Origin: Adineta vaga
Taxonomy: Eukaryota > Animalia > Rotifera
Reading direction: 5' to 3'
DNA length: 64,000 nucleotides
Assembly (NCBI GenBank): GCA_021613535.1
Contig: CP075497.1
Span: 13,206,001-13,270,000 of the forward strand
Shown: positions 13,201 to 57,889 of the stretch, piece after piece
Layout: every line of letters begins with the position of its first letter
Position numbering within the stretch: position 1 is the stretch's first letter
The notes under the pieces: model-generated
What the model was told of the DNA's origin: nothing
The model's input: only the letters and a program-made list of their open reading frames with translations
The model's database searches: none
Position numbers and translations under genes: made by a program

Positions 13201-13699
13201 ATGTGCTATATTATTCACCATAATATGCAATATAAATTCACAATCTGTATCGTGTTTTCCTATACAACGATGGAAATTAATCAATGATCAAGTAAATATC
13301 TGAACAAAATCATTTGTTTTAACGACAAAATAGATAGTCTACAAGTATTGTTAATCGATGATTTCGTTTTACTATTCGAATCAACAACGATTATACACAT
13401 ATTTGATTGGAAAAATGCCACTTGTGTGACTATAGATAAATCAAAACGAGTGGTAAATAAACGAAAATCGAATCTAATTTTTTGAGTTGCCTGATAAAAC
13501 CCAAGTTCAAATTCCATGTCATAAGTTTTAGTTTTATTTTTTTTAAAATAATCTTTACATCACTTGTTCTTATCGCAAGCACACCTCATCTTTTAGTTTT
13601 CTCTCTCTTTGTTGATAAGATCATACTTTTTTTTCATCTACATATAGAATAAGATAGTATCTGAAATTCTTTGATAAAACGTTTTTACCACTTACGAAA

Positions 13700-14588
13700 A
13701 TGAATCGCACAGCTTTGGTGACCGGTGCTGCACGAGGTTTAGGACGTGCAATTGCTCTTCGTCTTGCTCAAGATGGTTTCGATGTTGCTGTTAATGATAT
13801 AGAAATTAATTCTTCTGATCTTCAAAAAGTTCAACAAGAAATCGAAACAATAGGTCGAAAGTCAATTGCTATTATTGCTGACGTCGCTATAAGTGAAAAG
13901 GTCGAAGAATTGATGCAAGATGTTCTTGGAAAATTAGGAAGTCTTGATGTATACATGTTTATTTCTAATTATTCAATTTCTTTTTCTCTTTTCATTAATT
14001 CGACAGGTAGTCATTGCAAATGCAGGAATTTGCATTGTGAAATCACTTTTAGAAACAAGTGCAGACGAATGGGATAAACTTTTTGAAGTTAACATGCGTG
14101 GTGTATTTCTTTGTTATCGAGAAGCAGCAAAAGTGATGATCAAACAAGATAAAGGAGGGAAAATTATTGGTGCTTGCAGTACTGCTGGATATAAAGGATA
14201 TCCAATGATTGGTCATTATTCAGCTACGAAATGGGGTGTACGAGGTTTAACACAAGCAGCTGCTCAAGAATGAGCTCGGTATAAAATTACAGTTAATAGT
14301 TATTGTCCAGGTATGTTTTATTCTTTTTTTTTCAAATGTTTCAAATTTAGGGAATTTTCAATAGGACTTATTGATACAACGATGACCCAAACAAGTAATG
14401 AAGAGATAGCAAAACTTCGTGGATTGACAGTAGAAGAAGTTGCGGCAAATTCCGTCAAAAATATTCCACTCGGTCGTACAGGACAACCTGATGATGTTGC
14501 AAATGTTGTTTCATTCCTTGCAAGCAAGGATTCTGATTACATTACAGGTCAAAGTATTTTAATCAATGGAGGATTATATTTTTCTTAA
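13700..14588 (+). pseudogene. Short-chain dehydrogenase (acetoin/2,3-butanediol dehydrogenase-like) with an in-frame TGA at 14271-14273
   Basis: TGAARGLG, ANAGI, YSATK motifs; introns 13949-14006 and 14311-14364; frame reads AAAQE*ARYKITVNSYCPG where Trp is expected. Confidence 0.8.
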
Positions 14589-14775
14589 TTTATAATTTAT
14601 AACTATTTTCAAATAAAATTTCTCTCTATGATAAATCGTTTTCAGACGAATTTCATTCATTATAAAATATGTAAAACAGAAAGTGATGGTGACGTCTATT
14701 AAATGTAGAAGCATATGTATGGTATTTTCTTTCTTTTTCTTTTCTGCATTATTTCATACGTTTTTATAGTCAGTT

Positions 14776-15800
14776 ATGAGCGAATCACTTTCATCGTCAA
14801 CTTCCTCCGATCTTCAAGTTCCCGATGAAAAATATCTAACACTTTTAGATGGTCGTCAATTAGCATATACTGAACAAGGTGATGTAAATAGTAATAAAAT
14901 AATGATATTCTTTCATGGAGTATTTGGTGTTGGAAGTTCATCACCTGAAGAAAAACTTTATGATGACATTAGATATCATTTTATTGCTCCTACACTTCCT
15001 GGTTGGGGAAATAGTTCACCATGGCCAGAAGATCAACGAATTTTAAATTATCCGAATGATATTCATCAATTATTATTATCTTTGAAGAAAAATCAGAAGA
15101 AACAACATCTTCGAATCACTGTTGGAGGTGGAAGTTACGGAACTGCTTTTGTTCAAATATGTTTCTTTGCATCTCCTGATATAATGCCTGAAGTTACTAA
15201 TGTTGAATCATTAGTTCTTTGTTCTGGTTTTTCTCCATTTAAATATCATAGAACATATACGACAGGAATGAGTTGGTCAAATTATGTTGCAGTTGGTGGA
15301 CCAGCAATTTATTTTCCTTCTATTCGAAGATTACTGGGAACATTTCTACAGAAGAAAGCTCGTAATATAGACGAAGCAAAGAGTTTCTTACGAGTAAATA
15401 TATTTGATTTAATGGATGCTGAAGAAAAAGTAAAATTAACTTACATAAATGGGAAGAACAGAGAAACAGACCATTAGGATCGGTTCTTGAAATGATGGCA
15501 AGAAACATGTGTATAAGTATTGCAAAAACAATGGCTGGATTTAATAGCGTTGCACATGTGTTACATTCAGATTGGGGTTATGATCCAACGAAAATGCCAG
15601 CACTACCAAAACGAAAAATATTAATTATAACTACAAAAGGAGATAAGATAGCTCATATGGAAATGTCAACTTATTTAGCTGAAACTTATCCAAATGCAGA
15701 ACTTCGAACAATTGAAGGAGGTCATTTAGCATCATTTTTTGTACTTAATGATATTATGAAAGATTGGTTAACAAGTCTTGACCAAAACTTTGACGAATAA
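14776..15800 (+). pseudogene. Alpha/beta hydrolase, frameshifted near 15430
   Basis: LLDGRQLAYTEQG, FFHGVFG, GGSYG nucleophile elbow, GDKIA, GGH; C-terminal half continues in another frame (NLHKWEEQRNRPLGSVLEMMARNM). Confidence 0.75.
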
Positions 15801-16363
15801 ACCTTTTTTGTTAGATTATTACTTTGCTAAGTATAAAATTTTTCATGTTTTATCAACCCTTTGAGTCCTGATGGAATATAGATTCCCCACCTATACCGGA
15901 AAATTATATTTTTCACAGAATTTTAATCCATACATATTCTTCTGAATAGGGTCAATCAAATAATGCACTGTAGTGTATTTCATTGATTTTACAAAGTTTT
16001 TCTCAACAATCTAACGGATATCCCAGAAAGAATGGGCGTCTCGGTATTTTGGACTCTATGGTCTTTTTGAATTCTTTCTGAATTCAAAATCACAAGCCAC
16101 AAGCATTCTTTTCCACACAAACCTGGGTATACGGGTCTAAAACAAACAATTGGTTCTATTCAATGACCAACAGTCATTGTTATATATCCAGATGATGCAA
16201 CACACAATTGTTCACATCGTTTTTCACGATTCTAATCATTTCACTTGACCATGACCAGACATAAATCCAGTACTGTGTTCATTGACTCGCCTTAATTCAT
16301 CACTAGTGATGAAAAATGTGTATACCCAGTTAGATACTTTCACCTTAATCAATTTGAAAGACT

Positions 16364-16500
16364 TAGGGTATAAGGGTCTAAAGGGTCTAAGGGTGTAAGA
16401 CCCTTCTACCCTTATACCGTTTAGACCCTTATACCGTTTAGACCCTTATACCCTTACACTCTTATATCCTCACACCCTTATACTCTTACACACTTAGACC
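16364..16500. repeat. Degenerate 9-10 bp tandem repeat (AGGGTCTAA / ACCCTTATA) in inverted arrangement
   Basis: Direct reading: agggtataagggtctaaagggtctaagggtgtaa followed by repeated gacccttatacc units. Confidence 0.7.
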
Positions 16501-16729
16501 CAAAGATATGACGACTTCCGAAGTTATGAAGGACGAAAGTATGCATGTGTATATATATATATATATATATAATTATGAAGATTCGAAGACTTATGATTTC
16601 AATCGGAAATGATATCTGTTTCTTCTTTTCTTAATTCAGAAAGAATTCAAATAGACCATTGTATGTAAAAACTGGTGTATTTAGCGATTTTTACTACTAA
16701 AACTTATCCGAATTGAACTGAATAGGTGT

Positions 16730-16975: not shown

Positions 16976-17959
16976 TTTAAAAAAAATCGAATCCTAGTCT
17001 AAGATACCCTACGTTTTAAAAAATTGCGTTAGTTCACTGCCGGCATATTCGTATTCTAGAATGAAAGAAAATCCTTTCCAAATGGTAAATAATATTTTCA
17101 TGGAACTAAAGGTTTTATATCCAACGGAGAAATGGATTGAAGGTTATGAACTTTGGTATATAACAAAACACAAGGCAAAACAGATTATGGATACACAAGC
17201 TCATCTTCACGATTTAACTGATAGTTGTATTTCTATTCTATCTTTTTTTACGGAATACCTTAATGATGATGAACTAAATTGTCTGATGGATATATGCAAT
17301 ATATATTATGAAATTGCCTATGAATATGAGCAAGCTCTACAGTCTGGTCAAATTCGATATGATGACAACGATATTAATCAAAAAGATTTGGCGGGGTGGG
17401 TGTGGTTGTAGGTCTCTGAGCAGAGATGCCGACTTCCACATGCTCAAACACACCCCTCAACCACACCCACACCAACACCCCTCAAATATTATATGTCATA
17501 TAACAAAGCCTTGGAAAAATATTCAGAGTCTCATTTATTATGCGACACTCTTGAATCAAATATTCTTAATATTAATATTCTTATTTCTTCACTTTTTTTG
17601 CGTCAGTAGTCATACAATTTGTATTTTTGTATGTATTATGACTCATTTTCAATTTTTTAAGTAGAAGAGAACGATGCATGGTAAAGGGAATAGGATTATT
17701 CGATTTTTTTTCACGACGCTGAATGAATGATCGAGAAAATATTGATTTCATATTGATTATGAAAATGCATTGATTAGATTGAAAAAAAGAATGTTTATGC
17801 AATGACAACTGTTTGTTTAGTTGTTGATAACAGAAAAAGGAGAAATCACCACTGACAGATTCGTTATAAAAACGCCTGTTTCATTATCGATATTTTACTT
17901 CTAATTTTATCCAATTGAAACAAACATATTACTTATCAAATCATAAAACCACCCTCAAG

Positions 17960-18190
17960 ATGGCAAAAATAATCTGTATTTTGGCTGTTATATTAATAAT
18001 TATAGCTTTGAATATTGAACTGATTTCATCATCAGGAGGTTCTGATATGTTATTCTTCAGATCCGATTCTGCATCAATGTTTCTTGGAAATTGTAAACAA
18101 CAAAGAATATCACATAAGACAAGTGGAGTAGGTGAATTAGATTTTAGTGAAGATTACAAAGAATTGGCACGTGGTGGTACTGGTGATTAA
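17960..18190 (+). CDS. Small putative secreted peptide precursor (76 aa)
   Basis: Signal-peptide-like MAKIICILAVILIIIALNIELISS; AATAAA immediately after the stop. Confidence 0.5.
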   Translation: MAKIICILAVILIIIALNIELISSSGGSDMLFFRSDSASMFLGNCKQQRISHKTSGVGELDFSEDYKELARGGTGD

Positions 18191-18305: not shown

Positions 18306-18415
18306 CTTGAGGGTGTGGGTGTGGGTGAGTGTGGGTGGGTGTGGGTGTGGGTGAGTGTGGGTGGGTGTGGGTGTTGATATAGAAAGATAACACCCACCCA
18401 CACCCACACCCTCCA
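18306..18415. repeat. Fold-back element of telomere-like (TGTGGG)n / (CCCACA)n repeats; the largest of at least 9 copies in the window
   Basis: CTTGAGGGTGTGGGTGTGGGTGAGTGTGGG...CACCCACCCACACCCACACCCTCC; relatives at about 407-522, 3738-3789, 17393-17485, 19041-19124, 22198-22256, 23656-23742, 47219-47275, 54251-54310. Confidence 0.85.
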
Positions 18416-19535
18416 TCCTTAAAACGCATTCTTGCTATAGGATCACCTTTTTGAATGGTAATATATTCATCATCCTGGCTTACTTTGGATAAAGAAAAAA
18501 CAACGCATAAATTAACCCCTTTCCATCCCGAGATTTCCTTGCGTTCTGTACAAACACGAAAAAAATTAAAAATCTCTCTCTCTTGTCTCCAACTAGTTAT
18601 ATGTAAATCTAGTGTGATTATTATAAGAAGAACCACGTGTGGTAATTCGCTTGAACATCACATGATGTTCGTCTTCTAAGACGACGAAAGAACGAAATAA
18701 AATATTTTGCGTTCTGTATGGCATCTACGAGATGTCATGCGGAATTGAAAGGGTTAAAGATGGGTGCAGCAAGCACATAATGTACATAAGAAATGTGAAA
18801 AAGTGAAGCCGTTAAAACTAACCGTGATGCATATAACTCATTCAAGCCGACGCTATGTTGGAAAAAAGGAAAAGGATAAGCTGCATAAATAGCATATAAT
18901 ATTTCCTGCAGGCTCATATTACAAGGTATTCGTTTCGACATCGGCATCAAAAAGTTAGTACTATATTCGAGTTTTTAGCGCCTCGATTCACTCCTGTACT
19001 TGAGTAACGTCTCCAATAAGTGGAGTCGGATAGAGCTCAAAAGGGTGTGGGCGTGGGTGAGAATGTGGGTACTCCTGTCTTCTGCCATTCACAACCATGC
19101 ACACATATATACACATACCCTCAAGGGAAGGAAAAGAATGACTAATATAACAAATCGTTAGCTTCGTAGAGTGACATTTGTTGACGCTAACATATAGAAC
19201 ATGTTTCGCTCTCTAGATAACTTTTTTTCGGGTCCAGGATCTCGTTCTAGGGCACAATGTTACAGAGTATGGAATACCATTTCGGAAGAGTTTTTGTTAC
19301 TTAAAAATTAAATCTGCAATAAGTTTTCGGCTTAATTAACACTATTATGACTAAGGCTCGTATGTCGAAAAGATACAGAATAGATGAAATTAAATACACG
19401 TTGACAGTGTGCTTTGATAGCTCAGCGATCTGAGTCCTGGCTTAAGTATCACAGTGATAATTTAGTTCCATTTTTTGTTTTAGTAAGATCGAATAATTTT
19501 AGCAATCCTCATTACTACTTCACATTGATATCACG

Positions 19536-22106
19536 ATGGTTTGGGAACAAATTGATTGGTCCATCTCCGAAATAACCATCGCTTTCGGCTCTTTGCTGAT
19601 CCTAGGCTTCGTCCTCCTTCAGGTTTGTTGATTTCTGGTCTTGATCTCACATAAGTTACTCGATATTTAAAATATGAAACGCTCTCCTACATAGATGAAG
19701 CACTGGTTCAGCTTTCGCAGCACAAACAGCTGGTATCGATCGATGCCTTTCAATATTCGTGAAACCTTTTCATTCGGCGCTCTCCGCAAGGCCACCTTCT
19801 TGGGAAGGTCCTTTTCTAAGAAACATGGTCCAATTTATCGTCTCCATTCTATGTTTGAAACAGTCGTGTAAATTATGCTCGGTTGTTACTTTTCTTTCCA
19901 TAGTTCATCTTTTAATTTATTAATATAGAATTTTGGCATCGAGCGATCTTGCAGCTGAATTTTATAAGCATTCGCGAACACTACAACGGAGTCCTGAAGT
20001 TTCTTTGCTAGGCCAGGTATCGGAAACTGTCATGGGCAAGTGTATGGCGGCACTTCATGGCCAGCAATGGCAATCATGTCGGAACGCCTTCAAGACAACA
20101 TTTCTTACAAAAGCAGTACAAGATTGTTTCCAAATGATCCAGGGTGAAATAACCAAGTGGCAGGCAGAGTACGTGACGAACGGCGCCGTTCTAGATGTTC
20201 AACGAAGCAAAATCGACGAACTACCACTGAAGATCCTAGTACATGTTGTGTATGGCGATGATATCACGGAAGATGAAGTCGAGCAAGTGTTGCTGTTTGG
20301 CCGAGAACATGGGGTCATTATGGATGCATCCATGAACATCCTAGAAAACTTACCGGGGTACAAATCGCTACCTTGGAGTTTGAACGCTCGTTCAAAGAAG
20401 TTTCGTGCAGAATGGCAACGCTTCAACATGGTCAAACTGAAGAAAGCATTAAATCCGAGTGCTCAAGAACGAACCGATGTCTTTTCGATAGCGGCAAAGT
20501 ATTTTATGCAACAGGAAGATGACTTTGACTCAAAAATAGCTATGGTTTGAAGTTCTGAAAATAGATTTATTTTTTAACGAGATTTTGTATTTAGTTCTTT
20601 GATACAATCGATGAAATTTTGCTCCTAAACATCGACGTAACCTACGTTGCACTAATGAACATGCTGGTTTTTGTAGCGTCGAATGAAAGCGTTATGGCCA
20701 CACTCCGAGATGAAATCAAGAATTCGGCATCGTTCAATAGCAAGATCGAATATGACACTTTATCTAAACTGCCATATTTAGATGCTGTTTTCAAAGAATC
20801 CGTGAGACTGAGACCGCCTTTGTCGCTTAGTTTTCCAGAACGTACGACTGAACCCATGATACTGGGTGGTTATCAAATTCCAGCCGGAACGGCCGTCATG
20901 ATCGATGCTGCATCCATTAACCACGATGGTCAAGTCTGGAATCATCCGGACGATTTCGATCCGAATCGTTTTCTTGACATCCAAGAGTCTGGTATTGAAT
21001 TTCAGTACTTTAAGTATGGTCTCAATCGTAATCGTCGATGCTTGGGCTTTCGTTACGCTGAGGCCATCGTTAAACAGGTCAGTTGGGATATCTTATCTTT
21101 GGCAAAGATTGACATTGCTGACGATGAGGATCCTACGCAAGCAATGAAAAAATGGTCGAGCTGTGTCAGAGACAAGGGGCTCCCATTTTTTACGCCGTAT
21201 TCAAACTTCCCACGACTCAAAATGACCTTCGATTTTGGCGATGTGACGTCCTTAAAATTAGCGCCGGTCTTTCGTATTGACGATGGGAAATCAGCGCCTT
21301 GTTTTATTGCTGGTGAGAGAGCACTACGAGAAAAGGGCAGCGTATTGTTTGGCATGAGTTTCGGCAACAGCTACTATTCCGAAGACGTCATCAAGTCGGT
21401 CATACCGTTTCTTGGCAGCCGATTCAGTCGCATCTTCATCGATGTTCCTGATGAGTGGACTAAACACACGTACACTGCCTTGGGCTATTCCGGTAGTGAT
21501 GCTAAGAAAAAGTTGAGAAATCTGACGACTCGCTTGCGCAAACGCTGCCAGTTGGGTGTCGATATAGCCACTCAGTCTGGTATAGCACCTCGTGAGAATT
21601 TCATCTTCGTGGATTGGGGCACACATGTCGAAACTTCAAATATTTATCAAAATGCTCTGACAAAAATTAAAAAGGCGTACCAGCAAAACGAAGCATTTAG
21701 AACTGATTGTAATGCGACGACTGAAGAGGTTCTCCGGTCCCAAGGTCGAAGCCATGGTTGGGACAACAAATCATCGGCAGAGCTAGCGACGGCAATTGAA
21801 ATCGCTGTCACTTATGTTCTAATGGAATTAGCTGAAGCAGTAGCTTTTGGAGACATCGCCTCTCGTGTAACAAATGGTGGTCATGCTCCAAACACGCCGG
21901 CTGCCATGGTTTATCACCGACGATGGCTAGTTTTGGAAAAGTTTTTGAACTGCGAGTATGAAAATGAAATTTGCAAACAGCTGGTAAACAAACTTGCTCT
22001 CAATTTTGGCTTTCTCATCTTTGAAGCAAGACCAGTTAAATGTTCGAGTCATGAAGAGTTTGCTGGTGACGAAACCGAGAAGGGCACCGCAACAGTCATT
22101 AATTGA
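19536..22106 (+). CDS. Cytochrome P450 - cyclodipeptide synthase (NYH CDPS) fusion protein, about 795 aa; exons 19536-19622, 19695-19867, 19929-20544, 20595-22106
   Basis: N-terminal TM anchor; HGPIYRL; I-helix TIDEILLLNIDVT; ESVR (ExxR); FDPNRF; heme motif YGLNRNRRCLG (Cys 21039). Then, in the same exon and frame, CDPS motifs LFGMSFGNSYYS (Ser 21357, Asn 21366), YVLME (Tyr 21813, Glu 21825) and VYH (21912-21917). All three introns are GT-AG and the exon lengths sum to 2388 nt in frame. Confidence 0.9.
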
Positions 22107-22332: not shown

Positions 22333-23489
22333 ATGTTTGGTACAACTTTTCAAAGGAAACTTGCTCATTGCGTAGTATTAAGAGCTACGTTGTTAATACG
22401 GCGAACAAAGTCGAACCAATGTCTGCACTTTTTTCCAGGAGAAAATTCCGATCTGCGTGGTGATGGTGCCTTTCGACGAGAGCAACCACTGGGATCAACA
22501 ATGGAACTGGCTTACGCAGGAGTTCTTTCATTTCTTCGCCGAAACTACACAAGAAACTTGCAGAACGTCGATGTGGCCGTCACTGGAATTCCCTTGGATT
22601 TAGCGACCACTTATCGTCCTGGAACTCGGTTCGGACCGAAGGGAATCCGGGAAGCATCGACTCAACTGCCCGATCTCAAGTCGCATCCCGGTGGAATCGA
22701 CCTATTCGAAGATTTAGCCGTAATCGATTACGGTGACTGCTGGTTCGATGCTAGTCAACCAATGACCATTCCGAAAGCGATCGAAAATCACGCCAAGGAG
22801 ATCATCGATCAAAACGTGTTCCTTCTCTCTCTGGGTAAGAGTTGCACTTGTAACAGAAGTACAATTGCCTCTTTCTTGTTTACCTTTTAGGAGGAGATCA
22901 TTACGTGAGCTATCCATTGCTGAAAGCGCACGCCGCCAAGTATGGCAAACCATTGTCGTTGGTACAGTTCGATGCACATTGCGATACTTGGCCAAATCCA
23001 CACGAGGACAGTCTGAATCACGGCTCAATGTTTTATTACGCTGTTCGTGAAGGTTTAATCAATCCGAAGACTTCAATTCAAGTTGGTATTCGAACCTTCA
23101 ACGATGACTTCATGGGAGTGAAGGTGCTCGATGCCAGTTGGGTCCACGGACATAGCATCGATGAAACTGTACAAGAAATTCTTGGACGGATCGGCGACAA
23201 TCCAACGTATTTGACCTTCGATATCGATTGTCTCGATCCGGCCTTTGCTCCCGGAACAGGTACACCAGTCTGCGGAGGTCTCTCCACGGCTCAGGCCTTG
23301 GAAATCGTCCGTCGACTAGGATCACTGAACTTCGTCGGCATGGACATCGTCGAGGTTTCACCGCCGTTCGACCACGCCTCGATTACTAGTTTAGCTGCAG
23401 CCACCCTCGCCTATCAATTTTTACTTTTACTCAGAAACAAAAAGATTCTCAGCAAAAATTTTCCATTTGTCCCTAAGTCAGCTCAGTAA
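22333..23489 (+). CDS. speB: Agmatinase-like ureohydrolase, bacterial SpeB type (intron 22835-22890)
   Basis: GIPLD...RPGTRFGPKGIR, spliced LGGDH, FDAHCD, FDIDCLDPAFAPGTGTP, DIVEVSPPFD; exact 5' structure uncertain. Confidence 0.9.
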
Positions 23490-25062
23490 AGATCACATCC
23501 ACTTACCCGCGAACTCTCGCCCAAACTAAACAATGTGATTAGAGAAATTAATGAGAATTTATTTCACAATTTAATTAAATGACATGATTAATTTAAAAAG
23601 TTATTTTTTAGCAAATATATTCGCAAATACACCACTCATTTCAATGTTTTCCATCTTGAGGGTGGGTGTGGGTGTAAGTCAGTATCTCTATCGATATTCA
23701 TCCTTACATTCATTCTCAACGTCAGGCTCACCTACACCCACCTTTTTATTTTTCAATAAAACTTTAGTACAAATAGTCTTTATTATTCTGAAAAGAAAAT
23801 TTCATTTCAATTCCAACACGTCATTTTTAATTACAAACATCAATAGAATATAAAATCATTTGTTCTTATATTTTATTCATATCAAACACAATATCATGTC
23901 TTCTCGGAAAAATTATTTATGCAATTTAAATCTCTTTGCACCAACGTTTAATAATAATGAACAAGAAACTGTTGAACAACGTTGATGGAATATTATTGGA
24001 ACACGAATTTTTATTGTATTTCTTATATTAATTCTCTTTGCTACTATGGTCTTACTTTATCTCTAATGAATCAAACAATAAAAATCATCATAGATCATCT
24101 TCCAACAGACGCTAAATGTGTATGTTCTCAAATTTCGATACCTTATAGAAAATTTACATCGATTTACGTCAATTTTCATTCGATAGACTTTTGAACTTAT
24201 GGTGTATGTGCTCAATTTCGATCACTTGTTGTATTTTGTCGATTATCTACAAGAGGATGGTCTAATATGTAACTGTCGATTTCAAATTTGTATAATAAGA
24301 CTTCACATATATAGTCGATAAATTTGAAGAAATTGTTAAAAAAAAATTTTGTTTTATTCTATGTGATGATGTAACATTTGATAACATACATTAATAAAAT
24401 GGTGTTACATTTCTTTCTATCAAGTCTTCTTTTCATATTTTATTCACTTCGTTAATTATATAACTCGCATGAAATAGAACAGAACATATCGAAACGTGAT
24501 AGAATGAAACAGAAAGAGAAAGAGAAAGAGAAAAGATATATTCTATTATAACAAAATAAATATACATTTACATTATATGATTGTATTCAAATTTGAGCTA
24601 TAATCATATCGCATTAGGGTAATGAACAGATTGAGGATCTATAAGTGAGAATATAAATTAGAGATCAGTCATTCGAATAAAAATTATCTAAGATATAGTT
24701 TATTTTTAAGTTATAAAAAATTTAAATAGAAATAAGTCTAGATAGATATCTCTACATTAATCGTCTTTCTTCTATTTCTTTTTTGTAAATTCAAATAGAT
24801 TTGATACTGAATAGTTTGTTTCTAAATTTCGATTGAGATGAAATTGTTTGTTACAAAGTATGTAGATGATTAAGGTCATTATAAGTAAAAGCACGTGTTC
24901 TTTTCATATTAAACATGAGAGAAAGATAAAAGCACAAAATAAGTATTTATGAAACAATAGAACGGGTAAATTTTGTATATATACTCTCAACTGATAAGGG
25001 GAGAAAAGTTCATATTGTTATAATTAACATTTTTATTCTTTAGAAATATAGATACTTTAATT

Positions 25063-25928
25063 ATGGATGATAAAACATTGCATACTCAAGATTATTTAAC
25101 TGAATTCGGTACAAATGATTATCTCGGTGCATATACACGCTTTAAAACTATTCCATGGTTTATGGAACATATTAAAGGATTGGTACGTGTTTTTGTTAAG
25201 AACAGTTCTCATCTTGGTCATGAACGAGCTCTTGAATTTGGTGGTGGACCAACACTTGTCTCATCTTTTGTAATTGCACAATATGTTCAATCAATTACAT
25301 TTTCTGAATATGTACCAAACAATTTGAAGGCAATAAATGATTGGGTCAATCAAGTCGAGGATGCTTTTGACTGGACAGATGTATTTAACTTTATCATCGA
25401 ACAATATCATCAACAGGTTAGTTAGTTGTCTGTATCATTCTTTGCTGCGTGATTTTAATAGTCTATATTATTTAGACAGGTATCACGCTCTCATTATCAG
25501 AATGTGAACAACGTTTACGTACAGATCTTCAACGAGGCGGTGTGCTACAAATCGGTGATGTGAATAAACAATCTGGTTGTGCTGTACTCGATAATCCAGC
25601 TAATTATAACCAATTTGATATTATTCTTAGCTCATTCTGTCTCGAAGATGCTTGTCTTACAAAAGAAACATACGAAAAGACTGTCGAACGACTGTGTACT
25701 CTGCTAAAACCGGGTGGTTTTCTTGTTTTAGCACATGGACGAAATCAAACATTTTATTATGTCGCCGACAAACGATTTTTCGCTCAATATATGAATGAAC
25801 AATCTGCACGTGAGACACTGGAAAGAATGAAATTAATCAATATTCAAAGTTCAGCTGTCGATCGAACACCTAATATGTATAGTGATTCAGATGGTTATTT
25901 TATTGTATGTGGATATAAAATGAAATAA
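25063..25928 (+). CDS. NNMT/PNMT/INMT-family SAM-dependent methyltransferase (intron 25417-25475)
   Basis: LEFGGGPT, ITFSEYVPNN, AFDWT, FDIILSSFCLE, LLKPGGFLV, FYYV motifs. Confidence 0.85.
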
Positions 25929-30820: not shown

Positions 30821-33779
30821 CAAGAGAAGGTGCCCAGGTGTGTCCCTGGAATTTCAATGAAAATAGTGTGGGTTTGTTAAGTCAAGTATACCTATCTCAG
30901 GCATGAAACAATTAGCGGCTACGGCTGCTGTAATAAAAAATTATAGCCAAAACATTTTTCAAGAAATTGGCACATATACTTCGCTATATAGGTTTTTCTT
31001 TTAAGAATATTTTAAAGTTCTAGTGTGTTTTCGCGCTAGGTATTATATACCCCGTTCGATTTGTATGTTCTGTAGTTAAATCGTATGAAGAGACGAAGTG
31101 GAAGATGGAAAAAGTCGGTAATTTTATTCAGAAAAAAACGCGAGTATTTATAGGTGGAATGGATAAAGAGAAGAATTCATTGAGATGTTTCTTCTCTTCA
31201 TTTAGCTCATGAAGAAAGATTGACAATGGGTCAAGTTCCGTAAAAGGTCACACAGGAACATAAGTACCTGCTCTAGGAAAGAGAAGCAAGATATGTACGA
31301 GAGAGAAAGAAAGAGATATAAGAATGAGGAACGACATATACGGCAGAACAGAAAGAAATTTTGAGAGGGAAAGATATAACTATGCATGTAAGCGTGTAGC
31401 ACGACGAGAGAAGATGATTGATGAGTGATGATTTATTGCAAAGAAATCAGAACTGTAAATACCAGGATGAATAAAGGGACAGAGATGACGAAATCCAACA
31501 AAGAAAAGATGATGAAATGAGAAAGACAAAGAGATAGATGATGAAATGTAGAACATCCGTCATCATATGTTAACGAACAGATAACGGATGTACATATATG
31601 TGACGTATATGAAGAACAGAAAAAACATATATGAAAAACGAGAGGATGACATATGTTATCCTCTAACAATGCAACATTTGTGTTTTTACTATATCACTCT
31701 ACATCTCGTATACTAACTATATATATTCTGTATCTATGTATGTTTATACTTTTTTCTCCAGGTCTCTGTAATCACTATTTCTTTGTTTTCCTGATATCCA
31801 TCGCTTCTGTATTTATATATTCGTTCGTCCTTTCGACCTATAAATGGGCCGCTTTTGGTTTAAATAAAGCATGCGATAACCTTCACGATCTCTAACGTGA
31901 TACACTACCGTGTTTCCAACGCAAATATGATTAATGTTAACAATATTCTTTACATGTTTAACAATCTGGTGCGTCAAAAGTATCCAGAACTCGCTCAAAG
32001 TGAACCATCATCTAAAGATCATGAGTTGGCGGACCAGCTGTTTCTGTTGTTTAATCAACTATTAAATTCACCAGAACTCCCAGTCGACCATATTGTAACA
32101 TTGGACTTTGATGAATATGACGATTGCAGTGCTGATTATCAAGAAGAAGATAAAAATGATGTTGCTTCAAACGTCGATGGTATTAGATATTCTTATGATA
32201 CAATGTGTGCCATTGTAGAATATTCAAAAAACCATACTTTTAATTCAATACGTAGACGATATAAACAAATAAAATATAAAGAACAATTACGCCGCATCAA
32301 GCAATACGTTAATGTTCAAGGTACAACAACACAAAAACTACAACGTGTCGATGACTTTGTTTATGCAGAATTTATTCGTTTGCGACAATGTTGTCTACCA
32401 ATACACGATTCAGATTTAAGGCGCTTGGCTATAAAACAAAAGCACATGATTTAAATATCGTTGGTTTTACGGCATCTCATCATTGGATATTTAACTTTAA
32501 ACATCGCCATCACATTTCATCAAGAAAAGTAACAAAGCTGGTAACCAAAAATCATTTGGAAGATCGAGATAAAATATTGAAATCCGCCGAAAATTTTGTC
32601 CAAACAGTAAGAAATACCATTTCGGATTATGCTGAAGATCATATATTGAATAGCGATCAAAGCAGTTTCAAGTACGTTGTTTACGAATGGAAGGAAACTA
32701 AATAGAAAATAGCGCTTTTGATCTTTCAGTTATGATAATCCATCAACACGGACGCTAGCAACAATCGGTGAAAAAATAATAAGAGGCCGCGTCAAGTCAA
32801 TCAATGCTGTTACTCATTCATACACAATTATGCTGATCATTAGTATGGCTGGAGAATTAATTGATCCGGTTTTTATATGTTTACAAGAGCCTACAGGAAA
32901 ACTTGGACCGCGTATTAAACTATCAAGCGAGTAATATTCATGTCTCCTGCAGTAAGAGCGGAAAACTGAGTAAAACACATATTCAGTACTGGGCTGAAAA
33001 TGTTCTAAATCCATCGGTTTCTGAAGATTGTTTACTGCTGCTGGACTCCTGGTCAGGTCAGACTGATTCCAGCATTTATGATGATATTTTCGTTGAAAAT
33101 ATCACTTGTAAGCAAATGCAAATTCCATCAAAAACAACCGGTGATATTCAACCGTTGGATCGTTATTTTTTTGGACAATGGAAATATTTCAAAGAAAAAA
33201 ATTCATGATCGCGTGGCCATTGATCAAATAAGCATAGACATCTGTTCTAGAAACTGCATTTTAAAAATGCATTCTTTGATACATAACCAACTATCAGCTA
33301 AAACATTCTCACCTTTGATCAAATATTCTTGGTATTCGAGTGGCTATACGTCAAAAGATCCTGGTCATTTTGATAGTGTCCATGATGTGTGTTTTTCTTT
33401 CGATGAAGATTTCTGTTCTATGGTAGCATGCGATGACTACTCTTTCATTTGCTGCAGCCATTGCCATCGTATTCTTTGCTTCAACCACTTTTTTGTAAAT
33501 GATCATAAACATTAATAAAAGACTTAGAACTACTGATACTTTATAAAAACGGCACGCAACTCAACTGTAACCATTCTGATTGAAGAAAAAATCCTTACGA
33601 AAAAAAACCTGTATAGCGAAGTATGTGTGTCAATTTCTTGGAAAATGTTTTGGCTATAATTTTTTATTGCAGCAGCCGTAGCCGCTAATTGTTTCATACC
33701 TGAGATAGGTATACTTGACTTAACAAACCCGCATTGTTTTCATTGAAATCCCCGGGACACACCTGGGGACCTTCCCTTG
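30821..33779 (+). mobile_element. Tc5-like (pogo/Tc1-mariner superfamily) DNA transposon, full length but defective
   Basis: About 175 bp imperfect TIRs starting CAAG(A/G)GAAGG; TAA duplication in a C-TAA-G target; internal transposase. Confidence 0.9.
31927..33515 (+). pseudogene. Frameshifted Tc5-like DDE transposase
   Basis: CENP-B-type HTH (FTASHHWIFNFKHRH), ILNSDQ, LLLDSWSGQ, IQPLD, Cys-rich C-terminus; split over four or more frames. Confidence 0.85.
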
Positions 33780-35853: not shown

Positions 35854-38696
35854 ATGAACAATCAAAACCATCAACAACAACAACAACAACAACAACCGCA
35901 ACAGCAGCAACAACAAGCTGTAGGTGCTGCTCAACAAGAAGATATCAATCAGAAACGATCTGATATTGGTCAAGCTACAAATGCTGCACCTGGAACAACA
36001 GCATCGTATGAAACAGTATCACATGATGAGGGTATTGGTAATAACCCCCCCCCCCATATTAGAAGCCCACTGGGCTTCTAAACTGTCTATTACTTATAAT
36101 TTTCTAAGTGGGCTTCTATTGTGGGGGGCTTCTAATACGACTTTTGTGTTAAATTTTCTAAAAAAACATAAGAAAATTGTTGTTTCAGTTATCTCGAGTT
36201 TTATTTAGAATAAGTTCAAAATTAATTACACAAAATCTTCTTAAGATAAATATAAGCACAAATAAATACTTTTATAAATTATAAGTTACAAAAAAAAAAA
36301 GAAAGTAGTTTGAAAGTAACTAGTTTACTTTACCTACTTTTTCCATAAGTCAGTTAATTTTAATTGTTTATTTTTTTCATTTAATATAATTTTATCTTGT
36401 TCTGCAGCTAATGTAGCTGCATTTTGAATTTGTTCTTCATCATCGTCTTCATTAATATTTAATGATAGACAATCGACTACAGATGGATCATACGTATAAT
36501 TTTGAAGAGTTCTATTAAAAAAAACTTAGAAATGTCTTACTTTCGAAATAAACCATTCATTATATTTGTTCATTGTTATAGTGTTAATAACACTTTCTGG
36601 AGTAAAGAACACTTTAATACCATTAGCATATTGTTTTAGTTCATTAGGCGAAATATGACCCTTTCCTTTGAATAACAACACAGGATCAACACGTTGATCT
36701 TCGCCTGAGACTGTAAGAATAACCGTGCAAAATCTCTAAATGAAGAAACGAAATAAAATAACAAATAGAATAATTTTTTACATACCTTTTCTAAAAATAT
36801 GACGTGTCTACCGCTAGCTTCTGAAACTTAACGAAGACTTGTGATTATATTTAGTTGTTCTTGGAGAAGAATATGTAGATCTGATAACGCAAACTTTAAC
36901 TAGGTCTGAAGCCTGTCAGGTCAGCGTTGTAAAGATCTACGAAAACTTCTCTGTAAGTTGTATACAAAAACTCACGACGAATGAACAAGTTAAATTTGTT
37001 GTGTATTGTAAAAAAAGAAAAGTACTCACTTTATTACTTAAACATCCTTCTACTTCATTACAAGTGTTGATATCATTAATTGAGCGTTTTGCTTGATCGC
37101 CGAATAATGCCAGTGGAGATTCATCCATGTTAAAAACGTCACGTGGAGTAAAGGCCCCCATTGGGCCACGTTTTGGAGCCCATCGACTAGCTCGTCGTAG
37201 ATAATTATAGAATGAAGTAGCTTTTTGATGAACTTCGTCGAGTGGAATTTTTTGTTGTCGTTTTGGACGTTGAAGAGAAAGTCGATGGCGAACGAGAAAA
37301 CGACCAAACCATTTTGATGATGGACATGGGTGATTTAATTCTTGGCTTATTTGTCGTCCACGACGTTGAAGATAACGAAATGTCACTTTTTCTTTACGAA
37401 TATCAGTAATAGGTGTTGTTGTTGATCCAGGAGCAGTACGTTTTTGACGATACCAGGTAAGTAAACGAGAATCAAGGTCCACATAAATTAATTTTTTACC
37501 AGCTCCATTACGACGCATGCGTTTTTTACCTGAAGAAAAAAAAATAGAGATTGTTTTACTTTTTAAATGTAATAAAAATGAACTCCTCACCTTTCTTTTG
37601 AGATGACAATTTTATTAATTCATCTTTGTTCTTGATCCACATACGAAGTTGTTTTGTAGCACATCCGATATCGTTGGCTGTTTTAGATTTGTTGTTGTTT
37701 TTTTCGAAGTAGATGATCGCATTTAATTTTTCATTTACGGTCCATTGACGTCGCTTACGTTTATTAATGGTGGTTGATGTTGACGAAGAGGTAGTATCGA
37801 CAATGCTGTTGTTATTAGAAGATGCAGCTTGATGAGATGATTGTAATAATTCTTCTTCATCACTGGATGACTCTGACGACGAATAATTAACGAGTAATGC
37901 AGGTTGAGTCGAAGAATAATTATCATCGCTATCATCGTCACTGTCCGAATTAAGTTGTAAATAATTAGTCCATTTGATTAATTCATATTCATTTTCATCG
38001 ATAATAGACATAACTTCAACGCTGGAATCATTATCGGAACTGGATTCGTCTAATAGTGAGTTTGTAATAACGGCGCTAGATGCTCTTCGATTTGATACAT
38101 AGCTAATGGATATACAATTCAAGAAAAAATATTTTAATTGAATGACATGTGAACAATGCCGTCGGAATATACTTTGTATGAATATGTCTATTCAGCCTAT
38201 TCATTCTGTGCATTTCTCTCTTTCAAAAGATTAGATTATGAAACATCTGAAGATGTGTCCGATTGATTGTTATGTATTAATTTTGTCGTTGTTAAATAAG
38301 ATCAAAGAATTGTTCTGTCATGTACATCAATGCTTGTTTGATATCTAATTTCAACATTGAATTGCTTTGACTTTACTTTACATTCATACATTCGAAGTTC
38401 GAATGTATGAATGTTCAGAAGAAAATTGATAAATTTTGAAAAAAAATTCTAAATCTCGGACTTAATACAAGCCCATGGGCTTCTAATACATCTTTCATAT
38501 TGCTCCTTCCAAAGGGGGCTTCTAATACGGGGGGGCTTCTAATATGGGGTGGGCTTCTATTATAGGGGGGGGGGGTTTACTACAGGTAAATATTAAAATC
38601 TTTAAAAGTTGTAAGCTTTGAGAAAGAAGTGAGAAACCAATATTTGTAACATTGAATTTGATATTTTTAGTCGTCCATGGTTACGAAAGGTGCTAA
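35854..38696 (+). CDS. Small Gln-rich protein (exons 35854-36031 and 38671-38696); the intron is expanded by a transposon
   Basis: MNNQNHQ(n)...ETVSHDE spliced to VVHGYERC*; removing the element restores an 85 bp GTAAAT...TTTTAG intron. Confidence 0.6.
36035..38586 (-). mobile_element. pogo/Tigger-like DNA transposon with an internally deleted transposase
   Basis: TA duplication at 36033-34 and 38587-88; imperfect TIRs with poly-C/poly-G and TAGAAGCCC subterminal repeats; HTH-psq-like RRQWTVNEKL, CENP-B HTH SSKWFGRFLVRHRLS, VFNMDESPL; no recognisable second and third catalytic Asp motifs. Confidence 0.85.
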
Positions 38697-47536: not shown

Positions 47537-49913
47537 TTATACTTCCATTGATCTATTTTGCAATTGATCTACCAAATCTTTCGCTTGTCGGACAAACTCA
47601 TGGCTTTCCGGTAACTTTTTTTCTCGAATTTGAAGTGCTCGTCGAGCGTAGTCTAACGCTAAAGTGTGTTGTTGTGGATCGTTTTGATGAAAACAAGCCA
47701 AAGAATAGTATGAATCACTTATTTGCGGATGATCGGCAGGTAATGATGTTTCTCGTAATTTTAATGCTTTTTCAAAGTATTCCAGAGCTTGTTCACGGTG
47801 ACCGAGCGCATTATGCATTAAACCTATATTATGCAACGGTTGAGATTTATCTGGATAATACTCAGGCACAGTCTTATTGTATATGACTACCGACTTCTGA
47901 CAATATGTGATACCTTTCTTATATTTACATAAATTGTGATAAGCATAACCGAGACGATTATAACTCCGTGCTAATTCAATGTGATTCTCGGAAAGAATGT
48001 TACGATAGATTTTCAGTGCAAGCTTATAATAAATCAATTCTTGTTGATGGTTATGCATTTCGCAATATGTACTACCAATACCGGCCAATGTTCGTGCGAG
48101 ATCAAACGCAGATGATGAAAATTGTTTACGTTGAAGTATTTCAGCCTGTTGGAAAAATTCCAATGCTTTTCCATACTGACCAAAGAATCGATAAGCACGA
48201 GCCAAACAATATAGAATATTTGCTCGATCTTCATGATCAGAAGACATTCGTTCAAGCAAATGTTCAAAATATATTTTTGATCGTGTATAATCACTTATAT
48301 CAGCCAAAAGAATACCATACAGAATACTAACCTTTGTTTCAGCCATTCGTTCTCGAATATACTTCTCATACAATTGACTCATCTGTCGAATTTCAGCCGA
48401 TGGACGCATATGTATAAGCCACAAATACTGTTCTTCATGATAATTGATGGTGACAATCTCAAATGTAGTACCTAGCGTGAATAAAACTTCGTTTTCATCC
48501 GGCATAGCACTATAATCCGAGATATCAGCTAACACAGTTTCTGATCCTATTGTTGAATCCAATTCAAATTCAAAGAGAACATATTGTTCAGAATCAGTTC
48601 GACTACGACTAGGTGTCGTATTTGTCAATGCATCCCAACTGATAAATATTTGAGCAACAGACAATTGACATGAACACGAGAGAAAACCAGTTGTCGAGAC
48701 TAAATTTCCAACGCGATATTTTTCGATTTCATCGCGAGCTATAATAGAGCCGCGGTATACTTTTGTAATCATTGTTGAACAAATTGGTACAGTTTCAAGA
48801 CTACGACATAGATCTGCAATAAAATAGCGAAAAATGTACATAGCTGTGATATCTTCTGTTCGAAGAGCTCTGTTCACTAATCGATAGAGAAATGTTGGTC
48901 TTGTGTACCAGTTAATTGCATCTTTCGATTGATATGTACGTTCAAATTTGTCAATATTATTTAGTTCATTTGGATTCCCTTCATAATACGAACGACATTC
49001 ATCGATCATTTCTTGAAGAGCATCAAGTGTCTTTGGCATGGCCATGATCATAACTGCAAAGTAAGAAGAGAGCGATACGTATTATATTATACAACCAATT
49101 AGTTCTTTCCGGATTTCTTGTCGTTTGCTCAGATTCGTCATTCTTCGATTCAGTAGTGTGAAACTTGAAACAATCTCAACTGAGGGATAATTTTCAATCG
49201 AATTCAAGTCTGAGCTCATAGTCATAAGCAAAATACGCTCACCTGCACCCTCCCTATCACTCTCACCTTCGGAAACATGTCTTACTTTTAAACACATGAC
49301 ACCAAAGAAATGGTCCGATGTCTTGTCGAACATCACGTAAGGCTCTTTCGTGTCGAGCGATGACACTTAGCCCGTCACTTTCACCTTGGACAATAATTTG
49401 ACGCTCAATTTTGATAATAATTTTTTGTAATTGAGTGGCCATTACTTCAGGTTCATTGGTCAAAGTAGAAAATTTTCGATATTTATCAATCGAAGTTTTC
49501 GATAGTTGATCAGATTTGATCATACAAAGAGCTCGAACACATTGAAAGTCATGAACTATGAATGCATCTTCGATATCAGGCATGACAACAATGCAATGTT
49601 CATTAAATTTATTTGCACATGATAGATATTCAAAAAGTAAAGCCTTTTTTGTGTACAATAGAACGTAATTATTGAGCGCGCGAAGTTGACTCATGATTTG
49701 GATGTTATTTGCAATATCGTTACAAGTTGGATTATACCAAATTAAAGTTAATACTTCTCGATTCGGTTTGATTTGATCGAATGGTACGTCACAGAAAACA
49801 GGCTCTTTGACAGGTAACGAACTATTTTAAGAACATAATGACAAAAAACAAAAACCTGTTTTTCTTGTCTTACCTGCTCTGCAGTCGGTGAACCGAGTCG
49901 TCTTGAATTAGTG
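47537..49913 (-). CDS. ADP-ribosyltransferase (R-S-E) + TPR-repeat protein; 5' end uncertain
   Basis: AINWYTRPTFLYRLVNRALR, KVYRG, GFLSCS, DENEVL, followed by about six TPRs; upstream exon 49286-49820 linked by a GT-AG intron. Confidence 0.85.
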
Positions 49914-54338: not shown

Positions 54339-55454
54339 TTAGAAACCATGAACATATTTTTGACCTAAATCAGATAATTTTCCATTTGCTTGAATCAAAC
54401 AATTAGTCGAACCAAGGTTAGCATCAAGACGACGTTGTGCACCAAACCAAGCATAACGTTCAACCCAATTCAATGAATCAAGTTTTGCAACACTTTGTCT
54501 CAGAAAATCTGTTACTTCTTGTTGAGACACTGGTTCATTCGAATTCCATGATGTGCAAGCAAATTCTGTTATCCATACAGGATAATTATTGCCCAATTGT
54601 TTACGAACATGTGTAATCCAATTGATAAAATTATCAGCACCACGACCGTACCAATGTAAAGCAAGAAAATCAATACGTCCACCAAGTTTATTTAATTCTT
54701 GGAGAAATTGTCGTAACCAATTTAATCCTTCATTAGTCGAAGCAATAGCTGGAGAACCAAGTCGAGCACCTTGTTGTCTAAGAGGTTCGATATATTGTTT
54801 CCAAGCATGTGCTGCTTCGACAGGATTCATATGTGCTTGATCAGCACGTTCTGGTTCATTGAAACCAAGCACGTGTTTCGCGCCATTTGCTTGATTACGA
54901 AATTTATTTCCATCGTGACCCTTGTTAGTACTCCATAACATCGGAACATATTCAGCACCCGCAATATTCGTTCTATATGGTGACCAATTGTAAACCCATG
55001 CGATTTTTCCTCCTGCAAAAATGCTTGGATTATCTTCTTTATTTTCCATTGGCCATGCAATACCACGCTTCGATGAACTAAAAGAATAGCAAAATGAATG
55101 CTAATGAAGTTAGATACCTCAATGGATGTCTACTTACAGAGGTCTATTAGGTTTCGGCACTGCTAGTCCGCTTCTTACTCCACAAACTGCAGATTTATCA
55201 TTACTGACGAAAGCATTAGATTTTGAAGCTGAACCAGTTTTCATCCAACACGTACCACCTTCCCAATTTGTCCATGTAAAATGAGTGCATCTTGCTGTTG
55301 AAGAACATTTTCCACCACACAATTCAGGTGGACTTCGAACATTAAGAAGATCATTTCCACGAAAATCACATCCTAAAGCCCAATCATTCCCATTCCAATT
55401 AATATTTGCATTTGCAACAGCAAATATAATGAAAGACACCAAAAACTTTCTCAT
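54339..55454 (-). CDS. Secreted PAN/apple-like domain + GH128 beta-1,3-glucanase (one intron, about 55079-55137)
   Basis: Signal peptide; CDFRGNDL...CTHFTW...TCWMK; SKRGIAW, WVYNW, EYVPMLW, LGFNEPE, LALHWY, VWITEFA, VERYAWF. Confidence 0.88.
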
Positions 55455-56712
55455 AATGAAGACTCCAATTGTTGTTTTTACTCGAAGACTATAATCACAT
55501 TATTTATAGTCATACGCGTCTTCAATTTAAATCGAAGAACGCGATTGAATTACGTAATGGGATGGGGAATATGAATATACCTCATTCTATTTCATAGTCT
55601 TTATTCTCCCACTCTCTCCATCACATGTCAGGCCTACACATTATACGTAGCAATGAGTGTGGTATGCGTCATAAAGTTATCATTCTCTATCTCACCTGAA
55701 GGTAAATATTTGTCTTTCTATCACATCTACAACGTTAAGTATTGCAAAAATCGATTGTATTGAATACATATGTTGAAATAGAAAGAGTTCCATCTATTCA
55801 TATATATCGCATTGTCCGAAAAGTTCGTACAACTCATAATCTTTCATAATTTTATTCGACATATTTGAAGTTTCAAGAGACATGGCTATTAAAACGGTTT
55901 TTCTTTGCTTATGAAGGAAATGAACCAATTGGACCAAAAGTAGTGTATCATAATAAAATTGCGTTCTCTATAAAAACCACAGTACCCATATATTTCAAAG
56001 ATGCAATACGAGATGAGTTGTACGAACATTTCGAACAAGGTGATACCTTCTCAAAGTTCTTTGAACTACACTTCAATCAACATAATTTCAACATCAGCAA
56101 ACTCTCATAATGATGAAAATTTGAGACGAAACTTTGACAAATAATAAGGCAGAGTAAGAGAGTGGATAGAATGTCGTTCGAATCTAAGCAAAATCCCAAA
56201 AATCGAGCAATACATTTTTGGTGTAGGAGATCTATAATTATGGTACATTAGGATTAATGTAGTGAAATGACAATTGGAGTTTGATATTAAAGTTCATGGA
56301 TTATTTCTTGTAAAAACAAGTGATTTAAATCATGTCAATATTTAAACTGTATAGTTTTTTGAGCGATATTGATGAAAAAGACTGGAAAACTAATCTTTTC
56401 ATATCAAGTAATTTACTTCGTTGACCTTATTCGTATTTTTTCTTTGGTTGAGAAAAAATTTGCAAAGAATTTATGTCAAACAAACAAATTTTAATGTTAA
56501 AGCCCAACAGATATTACTAATTGATTTTTTTGTGTACATGGAATCATTTGTTTGTTAACAATAGATGACATACTATTTCTTGGTATCTAATTAAATAAAA
56601 AAATAATTAAAAAAAAAACTCCATCAAATGCTATTTCAATGATCATTTCATTTCATGTTGTCATTTACCTTACATTATATGATAAGAAGAAACATAAATT
56701 AATACATTCCAG

Positions 56713-57573
56713 ATGAAAACCATGAATACTTGTGTAAGTGACTGGTCTATAGCACAAAGTACCAATCTCAATAAACGTGATTCTACTGAACAAAAGTAAG
56801 CATATTTTCTTGATAGAAAGAAGAGTATGATTAGTTTCTATAGATCGATATCTGTATGGAAATTCTGTCGATATTGTTCATTGAATTCATCATTTTTTAA
56901 AGGACTCATCTTAGGAATTCTTACATTTGGTTTAGTATTAGCTGTCGTTATTACACTTTGGTTAACATCGGATCGTAAAACAACGATCGCGAATGTACCA
57001 AGTACAAATACTATACTCACAACAAGTACCACTATGGCTATAAGTACGGCAACGACTACCACTATGGCTACAAGCACGACGATGACTACAACTACAACTA
57101 CGGCAACTATTAGTAATACTTGTACAGGAGGATCAACATACACGACGCAACTTTTATATTTGAGTATGACATCAACTCTTTCTTGGACGAAATATACATT
57201 CAATTACACAGCACCTAATATACTATCGGCTAAATTAACATTTGCCTTGCGTAACGATCCCGACTTCTGGTATTTAGATGATGTTTCCGTGACAAACAGT
57301 TCAGGAAATCAACTTTTGTCTAATGGTAACTTTGAACAAGGTATTCTAGGTAATTGGATTTACTGTAATCCAAATAGTGCAAATTATTCTGGAGCTATCA
57401 CTTCGAATTATCCTCGTACTGGCTCTTATTCATATGAGGATGGATCAGTAGGTTCAAGTGATTATTTAAGTCAAACTTTTGCCGTCACACCAAACAGTAA
57501 ATATTCAATTAAATTTTGGCTTTCATCAGGTTCAAATAGTTCATCGTTTGCATTTGTTACAATTTCCTCTTGA
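56713..57573 (+). CDS. Single-pass membrane protein with Thr-rich stalk and carbohydrate-binding-like beta-sandwich
   Basis: TM GLILGILTFGLVLAVVITLWL; poly-Thr; WYLDDVSV and LLSNGNFEQG motifs; first exon tentative. Confidence 0.65.
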
Positions 57574-57889
57574 ACAATACCTTTGAAATGACTCATCCAA
57601 CGAACTAACTATTAATACCGAATGATTGTAGTGCTTATATAGTTTCTTATTTTATCAATAATAAAATATATACATATAACTAAAACATTACCAAGAAGTG
57701 TAGTCTCATCCACATCCTTAAAAATCCGATGGTATAAGGAATAAAAAATAATGTAAAATATTATTGTTATCATTTCTTTTTATTTATCATAAAACTACCC
57801 AAAACCATCATGTGCTTAAAACATTATTCTTATCATTTGTCAATAAATATACAAAGAACGAATAACACAATTCAAATAAAAGTATTTAG

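Follow-up and report, generated by a model that had tools for sequence, protein, structure and literature searches.

A spliced gene of the rotifer Adineta vaga encodes a GliC-family cytochrome P450 fused to a cyclodipeptide synthase

Cytochrome P450s of the GliC type oxidise cyclic dipeptides in fungi. According to the cited sections of PMC10086836, GliC hydroxylates both alpha-carbons of its substrate before glutathione addition and AclC has the same role, and TcpC, a member of one group with GliC and SirC, oxidises a single alpha-carbon and a single nitrogen in the cited account (PMC4938161). AsaD, TamB and CypX are reported in the cited parts of two further papers to yield iron-binding hydroxamates (PMC10512218, PMC11442908). 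Eukaryotic cyclodipeptide synthases (CDPSs) known at the time are described as stand-alone enzymes in the cited section of PMC2922099, and Rotifera is not among the four eukaryotic phyla listed for CDPSs in that of PMC11610984. We found no published description of a rotifer or other eukaryotic P450–CDPS fusion, with most subscription journals lying outside the search. One row of a published supplement lists a CDPS with a length of exactly 20 kb plus 1452 nt and does not mention a P450; it is very likely the locus described here, because 1452 nt is the length of the internal open reading frame of exon 4.

The window, that is, the whole stretch analysed, comprises 64,000 nucleotides of the A. 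vaga contig CP075497.1. Within it, a gene of four coding exons (19536–22106, + strand) encodes a protein of 795 residues that is letter-for-letter identical to P0001 (Adineta vaga UJR38781.1). Three introns of 72, 61 and 50 nt, all GT..AG, separate the exons. From the N to the C terminus, the protein consists of a membrane anchor, a P450 (Pfam p450, residues 67–480, E 1e-46) and an NYH-type CDPS (Pfam, residues 535–705, E 8e-21). The anchor is predicted at residues 10–28, with a 19-residue hydropathy of 2.21 from residue 10, and the structural model shows a helix over residues 10–36. We consider it quite probable that this single spliced protein builds a cyclic dipeptide and then oxidises its ring. 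The features of the gene are as follows.

18931..18953, + strand: likely upstream non-coding exon piece, spliced to 19484; contigs X1, X2 and X11 have loose 5′ ends that match there
19536..19622, + strand: coding exon 1 of the gene model, with the start codon and predicted membrane anchor
19695..19867, + strand: coding exon 2, N-terminal part of the P450; the 72-nt GT..AG intron is skipped in the contigs
19929..20544, + strand: coding exon 3, middle of the P450, with VMGKCMAALHG and LPLKILVHVVYG; the 61-nt intron is skipped
20029–20070, + strand: segment VMGKCMAALHGQQW, in frame
20221–20256, + strand: segment LPLKILVHVVYG, in frame within exon 3
20595..22106, + strand: coding exon 4, P450 from the I-helix to its C terminus, linker, entire CDPS and stop codon; the 50-nt intron is skipped
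20601–20642, + strand: GliC-type I-helix DTIDEILLLNIDVT, with N304, D306 and, where Thr is usual, V307
20796–20816, + strand: segment ESVRLRP, in frame
21015–21047, + strand: heme loop YGLNRNRRCLG, with Cys441 at 21039–21041 and one additional residue
21315..21959, + strand: NYH-type CDPS domain, by TIGR04539 and by alignment to AlbC, YvmC and BtCDPS

Eight of the 20 sequencing runs listed, for which no library type is on record, were examined. X1 and X2, from one study, and X11, from a second, each gave one contig from which all three introns are removed; these contigs reach from 19484 past 22240, covering the P450–CDPS junction. Run X5 skips the third intron, X6–X8 give partial coverage only, and X10 retains the introns. 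The RNA status of the runs is a guess or unrecorded, and we infer a transcript because splicing itself is seen. The junction lies inside the open frame of exon 4, and the Rotaria socialis orthologue P0002 is of equal length, its P450 and CDPS domains being 86% and 87% identical, respectively. An artefact of annotation or assembly, or a fusion with one dead domain, is extremely unlikely: apart from the missing Thr of the I-helix, which is a trait of the whole family, nothing speaks for it, and the single open exon, the spliced contigs across the junction and the same architecture in Rotaria, conserved in both domains, all speak against it. The spliced, conserved animal gene for a GliC-type P450–CDPS fusion is real.

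A preliminary description had likened the P450 half to fungal GliC-type enzymes from five quoted segments, all of which are present and in frame on the + strand, and this resemblance is upheld by motifs, a profile search and a tree. The span given for it, 19929..21100, does hold the motifs, but it starts at exon 3, omitting exons 1 and 2 with the anchor and the P450 N terminus, and includes the 50-nt intron at 20545–20594. The superfamily core is intact, with the ExxR residues E360 and R363 and the heme-loop cysteine C441, and the model adopts a P450 fold (VIA-align Z 34.5, rmsd 2.8 across 406 residues). The I-helix retains the acid of the acid–alcohol pair, D306, but has neither its Thr nor the usual Gly. 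In the alignment, DTIDEILLLNIDVT stands opposite DTMDEILFANLDVT of P0172, whose record name is 'cytochrome P450 oxidoreductase GliC' of Penicillium psychrosexuale and which shares 27% identity with the rotifer P450 over 419 residues (E 5e-36). The GliC motifs quoted in the preliminary description occur in fungal rows, TMDEILFANLDVT in P0172, LLGQCVGL in P0194 and YPFLVVAEVLYG in P0206. Four loose patterns based on the segments, drawn up only after the alignment was seen, match 10–15 of 16 family members and none of 37 ordinary P450s. The reported heme-loop insertion is genuine, amounting to one residue shared with the Rotaria orthologue; it is absent from P0172 and four other aligned fungal rows and is therefore not a sign of GliC. 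An FFTPY motif after the heme loop is common to the rotifer and coral proteins and absent from the five aligned fungal rows. A match to CYP11B is confined to the C-terminal half (E 4e-18), PDB searches returned no GliC-type structure among their results, and atlas feature searches returned generic P450 clusters only.

Word-seeded homologue searches first retrieved coral and anemone P450s (31–33% identity) and no GliC-type fungal protein; these were retrieved solely by a full HMMER search, in which an 11-sequence profile was run against 1.84 billion representatives and 150 matches were listed. Of these matches, 85 were chosen by motif and BLAST score for a tree, which omitted five short fragments and most chains with several P450s, four such chains serving as outgroups. 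In the 45-row tree, 36 family rows form a clade against nine outgroup rows (support 100/100), and in a quick 105-row tree three divergent rows fall between family and outgroup. Ten matches were looked up; six are named, all of them fungal, and one is named GliC. The tree took in no experimentally characterised GliC, TcpC or AsaD sequence. A profile built from 23 rows of the fungal clade gives the rotifer P450 220 bits, whereas none of 94 ordinary P450s exceeds 124.5; the former score is biased upward, since the profile that fetched the fungal rows itself contained the rotifer protein.

Coral family members bear the automatic names tcpC-like, verC-like, asaD and aclC-like, and others are labelled uncharacterised. 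Such names are weak evidence, because anemone members of the same family are called CYP3A6-like, CYP3A13 and lithocholate hydroxylase. Corals, octocorals and anemones carry a conserved GliC-like P450 (P0007, P0008, P0055, P0096 and P0103, about 56–72% mutual identity), and the coral members stand alone, with no fused CDPS; no CDPS was found on nine short loci (L001–L009). A search of the main text and five supplements of a cnidarian P450 survey (PMC8110760) did not turn up the coral family motifs. Grouping with the ordinary animal-type P450s tested is rejected, a tree that joins the rotifers to five ordinary animal-type P450s (two named CYP6, three labelled from motifs, and no mitochondrial-clan row) giving p-AU 3e-52. 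This value and the I-helix speak against an ordinary animal P450 of clans 2, 3 and 4 with an AGxD/ET I-helix.

The preliminary description further proposed a chimera, in which a fungal P450 normally paired with a non-ribosomal peptide synthetase (NRPS) had been newly joined to a CDPS. In that form the proposal is not supported, as the rotifer proteins lie outside the fungal clade and fusions recur in the family. The fungal clade comprises 14 rows, including all six named fungal proteins, and excludes the rotifers (support 100/99); forcing the rotifers into it is rejected (p-AU 0.013). A direct fungal donor is thus not supported, and the same test speaks against a narrow fungal GliC orthologue. 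The rotifers fall in the non-fungal part of the tree with corals and unnamed sequences, a placement with SH-aLRT 90–97 in the quick tree and open in the careful one. Identity to the rotifer P450 is 31–33% for corals, 32% for P0135 and 21–30% for fungal members (27% for the GliC-named P0172); 21–30% is too low for the regiochemistry of the fungal enzymes to be assumed here. P0147, which has a CDPS-like tail, adjoins the fungal clade (95/78) and is one of two rows nearer to that clade than the rotifers.

Transfer of a fungal GliC-type P450 to the rotifer lineage, with fusion to a CDPS there and alpha-carbon hydroxylation as in gliotoxin-type pathways, would account for the motifs and the family membership, and a foreign origin fits both the GC content of the fusion gene (0.43, versus 0.32 for the window) and the bacterial-type agmatinase beside it. 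We nevertheless judge such a transfer quite unlikely, given the rejected grouping of the rotifers with the fungal clade, the two unnamed rows nearer to that clade, the greater similarity of corals and unnamed sequences, and the P450–CDPS fusions outside rotifers. Nor did a Pfam scan of 28 ORFs in the window, mostly of at least 150 residues so that short exons could escape, detect a sulfur-adding gene (glutathione transferase, GliG-type), an NRPS or GliG/K/J/I/T genes beside the fusion. A foreign origin of the rotifer gene is still plausible from its sequence, and common ancestry with the cnidarian genes is possible. The rotifer protein is among several fusions in a non-fungal branch that had not been described and, judged by the relatives compared, represents a recurring CDPS partnership, not a one-off chimera with a fungal P450.

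Viral, prokaryotic, plasmid and phage sequences were also scanned. Scans of viral contigs found no relative, five pattern matches proving not to be P450s. The top viral matches in Foldseek are P450s of Tupanvirus and Yasminevirus (22–23% identity), together with one megavirus CDPS. One weak match from the prokaryote-genome scan lies outside the family, plasmids gave two weak CDPS matches (25–28%), and phages gave one weak P450 match.

A P450 joined to an NYH CDPS is found in seven clusters: P0001, P0002, P0003, P0045, P0048, P0137 and P0145. P0133 stops at a stretch similar to the start of a CDPS. The tails of P0147 and P0195 match TIGR04539 under its cut-off (E 3e-8 and 9e-6) and are the sole additional matches below E 0.02 when a CDPS profile is run over 287 proteins; they contain GxS, YxxxELP and LLYP motifs, are missed by Pfam at E 0.001, and are read as putative XYP-like CDPSs (hhalign probability 69%). 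In a scan of 13 proteins, fungal family members were also found to be fused, P0199 to a tryptophan prenyltransferase and P0264 to an O-methyltransferase. Such repeated joining to enzymes of cyclodipeptide pathways suggests, as context, that the family acts on cyclodipeptides made by either kind of synthase. P0048, P0137 and P0145 are compact fusions of 593–641 residues with shortened P450s, and the contigs that carry P0048 and P0145 measure 19–47 kb; a giant-virus origin of these three is possible, and the viral-contig scans found none. A single exclusive clade of NYH fusions, and with it one loss-free origin for all of them, is rejected at p-AU 0.007, though not in a test with fewer rows (p-AU 0.07). 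Repeated fusion, and an ancestral fusion followed by losses or obscured by truncated gene calls, are both possible.

The proposed joining of the P450 to a CDPS is itself borne out, as TIGR04539 matches at 96 bits against a cut-off of 45 within one open exon. The bacterial model for CDPS-associated, CypX-like P450s (TIGR04538) gives 27.1 bits against a cut-off of 500, with exon 4 alone scanned, a score far under the threshold that speaks against a P450 of that kind. Residues S547, N550, Y699, E703, Y732 and H733 correspond to the catalytic residues of AlbC and to the NYH trio. The alignment to AlbC spanned residues 23–158, and the numbering of its Tyr, Glu, Tyr and His is assumed. In both rotifers, with pocket positions taken from the cited part of PMC5816076, L-G-D-P-W-E-A-M makes up the first pocket, with D575 and E706 acidic; in four other aligned NYH fusions, position 65 is F and position 185 is F or M. 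None of the NYH motifs in Table 2 of that paper has two acidic residues, and an XYP enzyme taking His is described there with Glu at position 185. The acidic pocket may point to a basic amino acid (Arg, Lys or His), an assignment we offer tentatively. A single-sequence model of the CDPS alone has a pLDDT of 41, too poor for pocket geometry.

Several neighbouring genes were noted. Directly downstream (22501–23489, + strand) lies a two-exon bacterial-type agmatinase with a GC content of 0.48 (best PDB match 4dz4, E 4e-82). It could act on an arginine-containing product; since it scores as an ordinary agmatinase, this ureohydrolase was not counted as a pathway enzyme. Farther downstream (25024–25928, + strand), two ORFs encode an NNMT/PNMT/TEMT-family methyltransferase with a weak match to GntF, a possible tailoring enzyme by its family. 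Upstream are an SDR oxidoreductase and an alpha/beta hydrolase (13658–15800, + strand) and a small ORF of about 76 residues (17960–18190, + strand) with a hydrophobic, signal-peptide-like N terminus and no match in Pfam or NCBIfam. The scan does not show that any neighbour belongs to the pathway.

Further features of the window include repeats and transposase pieces. Short inverted arrays of GGGTGT-type repeats lie at 18308–18414, 17392–17486, 19043 and 23658, and TGAGGGTGTGGG matches the window 12 times where 0.04 matches would be expected; we take the arrays to resemble the bdelloid telomeric repeat or a small mobile element. MITE-like nested inverted repeats with 8-nt tandem units occupy 16047–16670, and pieces of Tc5/pogo transposases (Transp_Tc5_C, CENP-B_N) occur at 33009–33515 (+ strand) and 37556–38191 (− strand). 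An ADP-ribosyltransferase domain fused to TPR repeats is encoded at 47537–49081 (− strand), and glycosyl hydrolase, carbohydrate-binding and sialic-acid-acetylesterase-like ORFs at 54339–58665 are likely additional foreign genes.

In the mechanism we propose, the N-terminal helix would anchor the protein in the endoplasmic reticulum, and the cytosolic CDPS would use two aminoacyl-tRNAs via Ser-linked intermediates, as described for AlbC in the cited section of PMC5816076. The cyclodipeptide would then pass to the P450 domain, and a host P450 reductase would supply the electrons, the fusion having no reductase domain of its own. The P450 is predicted to oxidise the cyclodipeptide ring at a nitrogen or an alpha-carbon, and with Val for the usual Thr oxygen activation might be substrate-assisted, a guess from general P450 knowledge. 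By analogy, ring N-hydroxylation to a hydroxamate-type, iron-binding product is a real possibility that we place slightly ahead of alpha-carbon hydroxylation, itself somewhat doubtful; it is ranked first because the two-enzyme systems TamA/TamB and YvmC/CypX give N-hydroxy products and because no GliG-type gene was seen among the 28 ORFs scanned in the window. To judge by the product class, the protein may have a role in defence or iron competition. It is very unlikely, by comparison, that both domains are active and the P450 instead carries out other chemistry on the cyclodipeptide, such as desaturation, dimerisation, aryl coupling or hydroxylation of a side chain, or that its substrate is an unrelated one. 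Its deep divergence from the fungal members and its unusual heme loop would fit such chemistry, as would bacterial CDPS-linked P450s that cross-link rings as well as N-oxidise them (cited part of PMC2922099); against this, the GliC-named protein has the same type of odd I-helix above the heme, and the repeated fusions tie the family to cyclodipeptide pathways.

A broader scenario, speculative and in our view unlikely, is that GliC-type P450s are an old eukaryotic family of enzymes that oxidise cyclodipeptides and that first worked with a tRNA-dependent CDPS. Fusions to NYH and XYP-like CDPSs would then survive in rotifers and unnamed lineages, corals would keep the P450 alone, and fungi would have switched to an NRPS; the rotifer gene would be a one-gene pathway to an oxidised cyclodipeptide with a basic amino acid, for iron capture or defence against fungi and bacteria. 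If so, the lists of NYH enzymes would contain no other with such a basic first-pocket specificity. Known animal genes for microbial-style secondary metabolites are few, and here synthesis and tailoring reside in one expressible chain, making the product directly testable. The family of P450s responsible for gliotoxin-type chemistry extends widely outside fungi, with a branch of rotifers, corals, anemones and unnamed sequences that is repeatedly linked to a CDPS; this bears on the origin of GliC and suggests a function for the coral P450s. An acidic-pocket CDPS could also widen the substrates available for cyclodipeptide engineering.

Among known systems, GliC, SirC, TcpC, AclC and VerC of the epidithiodiketopiperazine pathways belong to the same P450 family as the rotifer enzyme by tree and motifs. 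The rotifer and fungal GliC-type proteins have in common the DExLxxNxDVT I-helix, the LxGxC C-helix and the xYG E-helix, as well as a predicted diketopiperazine substrate. Unlike them, the rotifer enzyme is not part of the fungal clade, has a fused CDPS in place of an NRPS, has an additional heme-loop residue, and is not accompanied by nearby sulfur-adding genes. AsaD (aspergillic acid) and TamB (terramides), likened to it by their described chemistry and, for AsaD, by the automatic name of a coral member, offer a precedent for one P450 that N-oxidises a ring after one synthase, as proposed here; their partner is an NRPS or NRPS-like enzyme on a separate gene, whereas that of the rotifer P450 is a fused CDPS. 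An NYH CDPS is likewise coupled to a P450 in the YvmC/CypX and Rv2275/CYP121 operons and in Streptomyces 'CDPS 71'. The last has the CDPS first and then a 410-residue P450 in the cited description (PMC5816076), the reverse of the rotifer order, in which a membrane-anchored, eukaryotic GliC-type P450, scarcely matched by the bacterial TIGR04538, precedes the CDPS. Animal CDPSs from Nematostella (Nvec-CDPS2), coral and annelid are, like that of the rotifer, of NYH type in an animal genome; the rotifer enzyme differs in being fused and in its acidic first pocket, which is unlike the NYH motifs tabulated in the cited Table 2.
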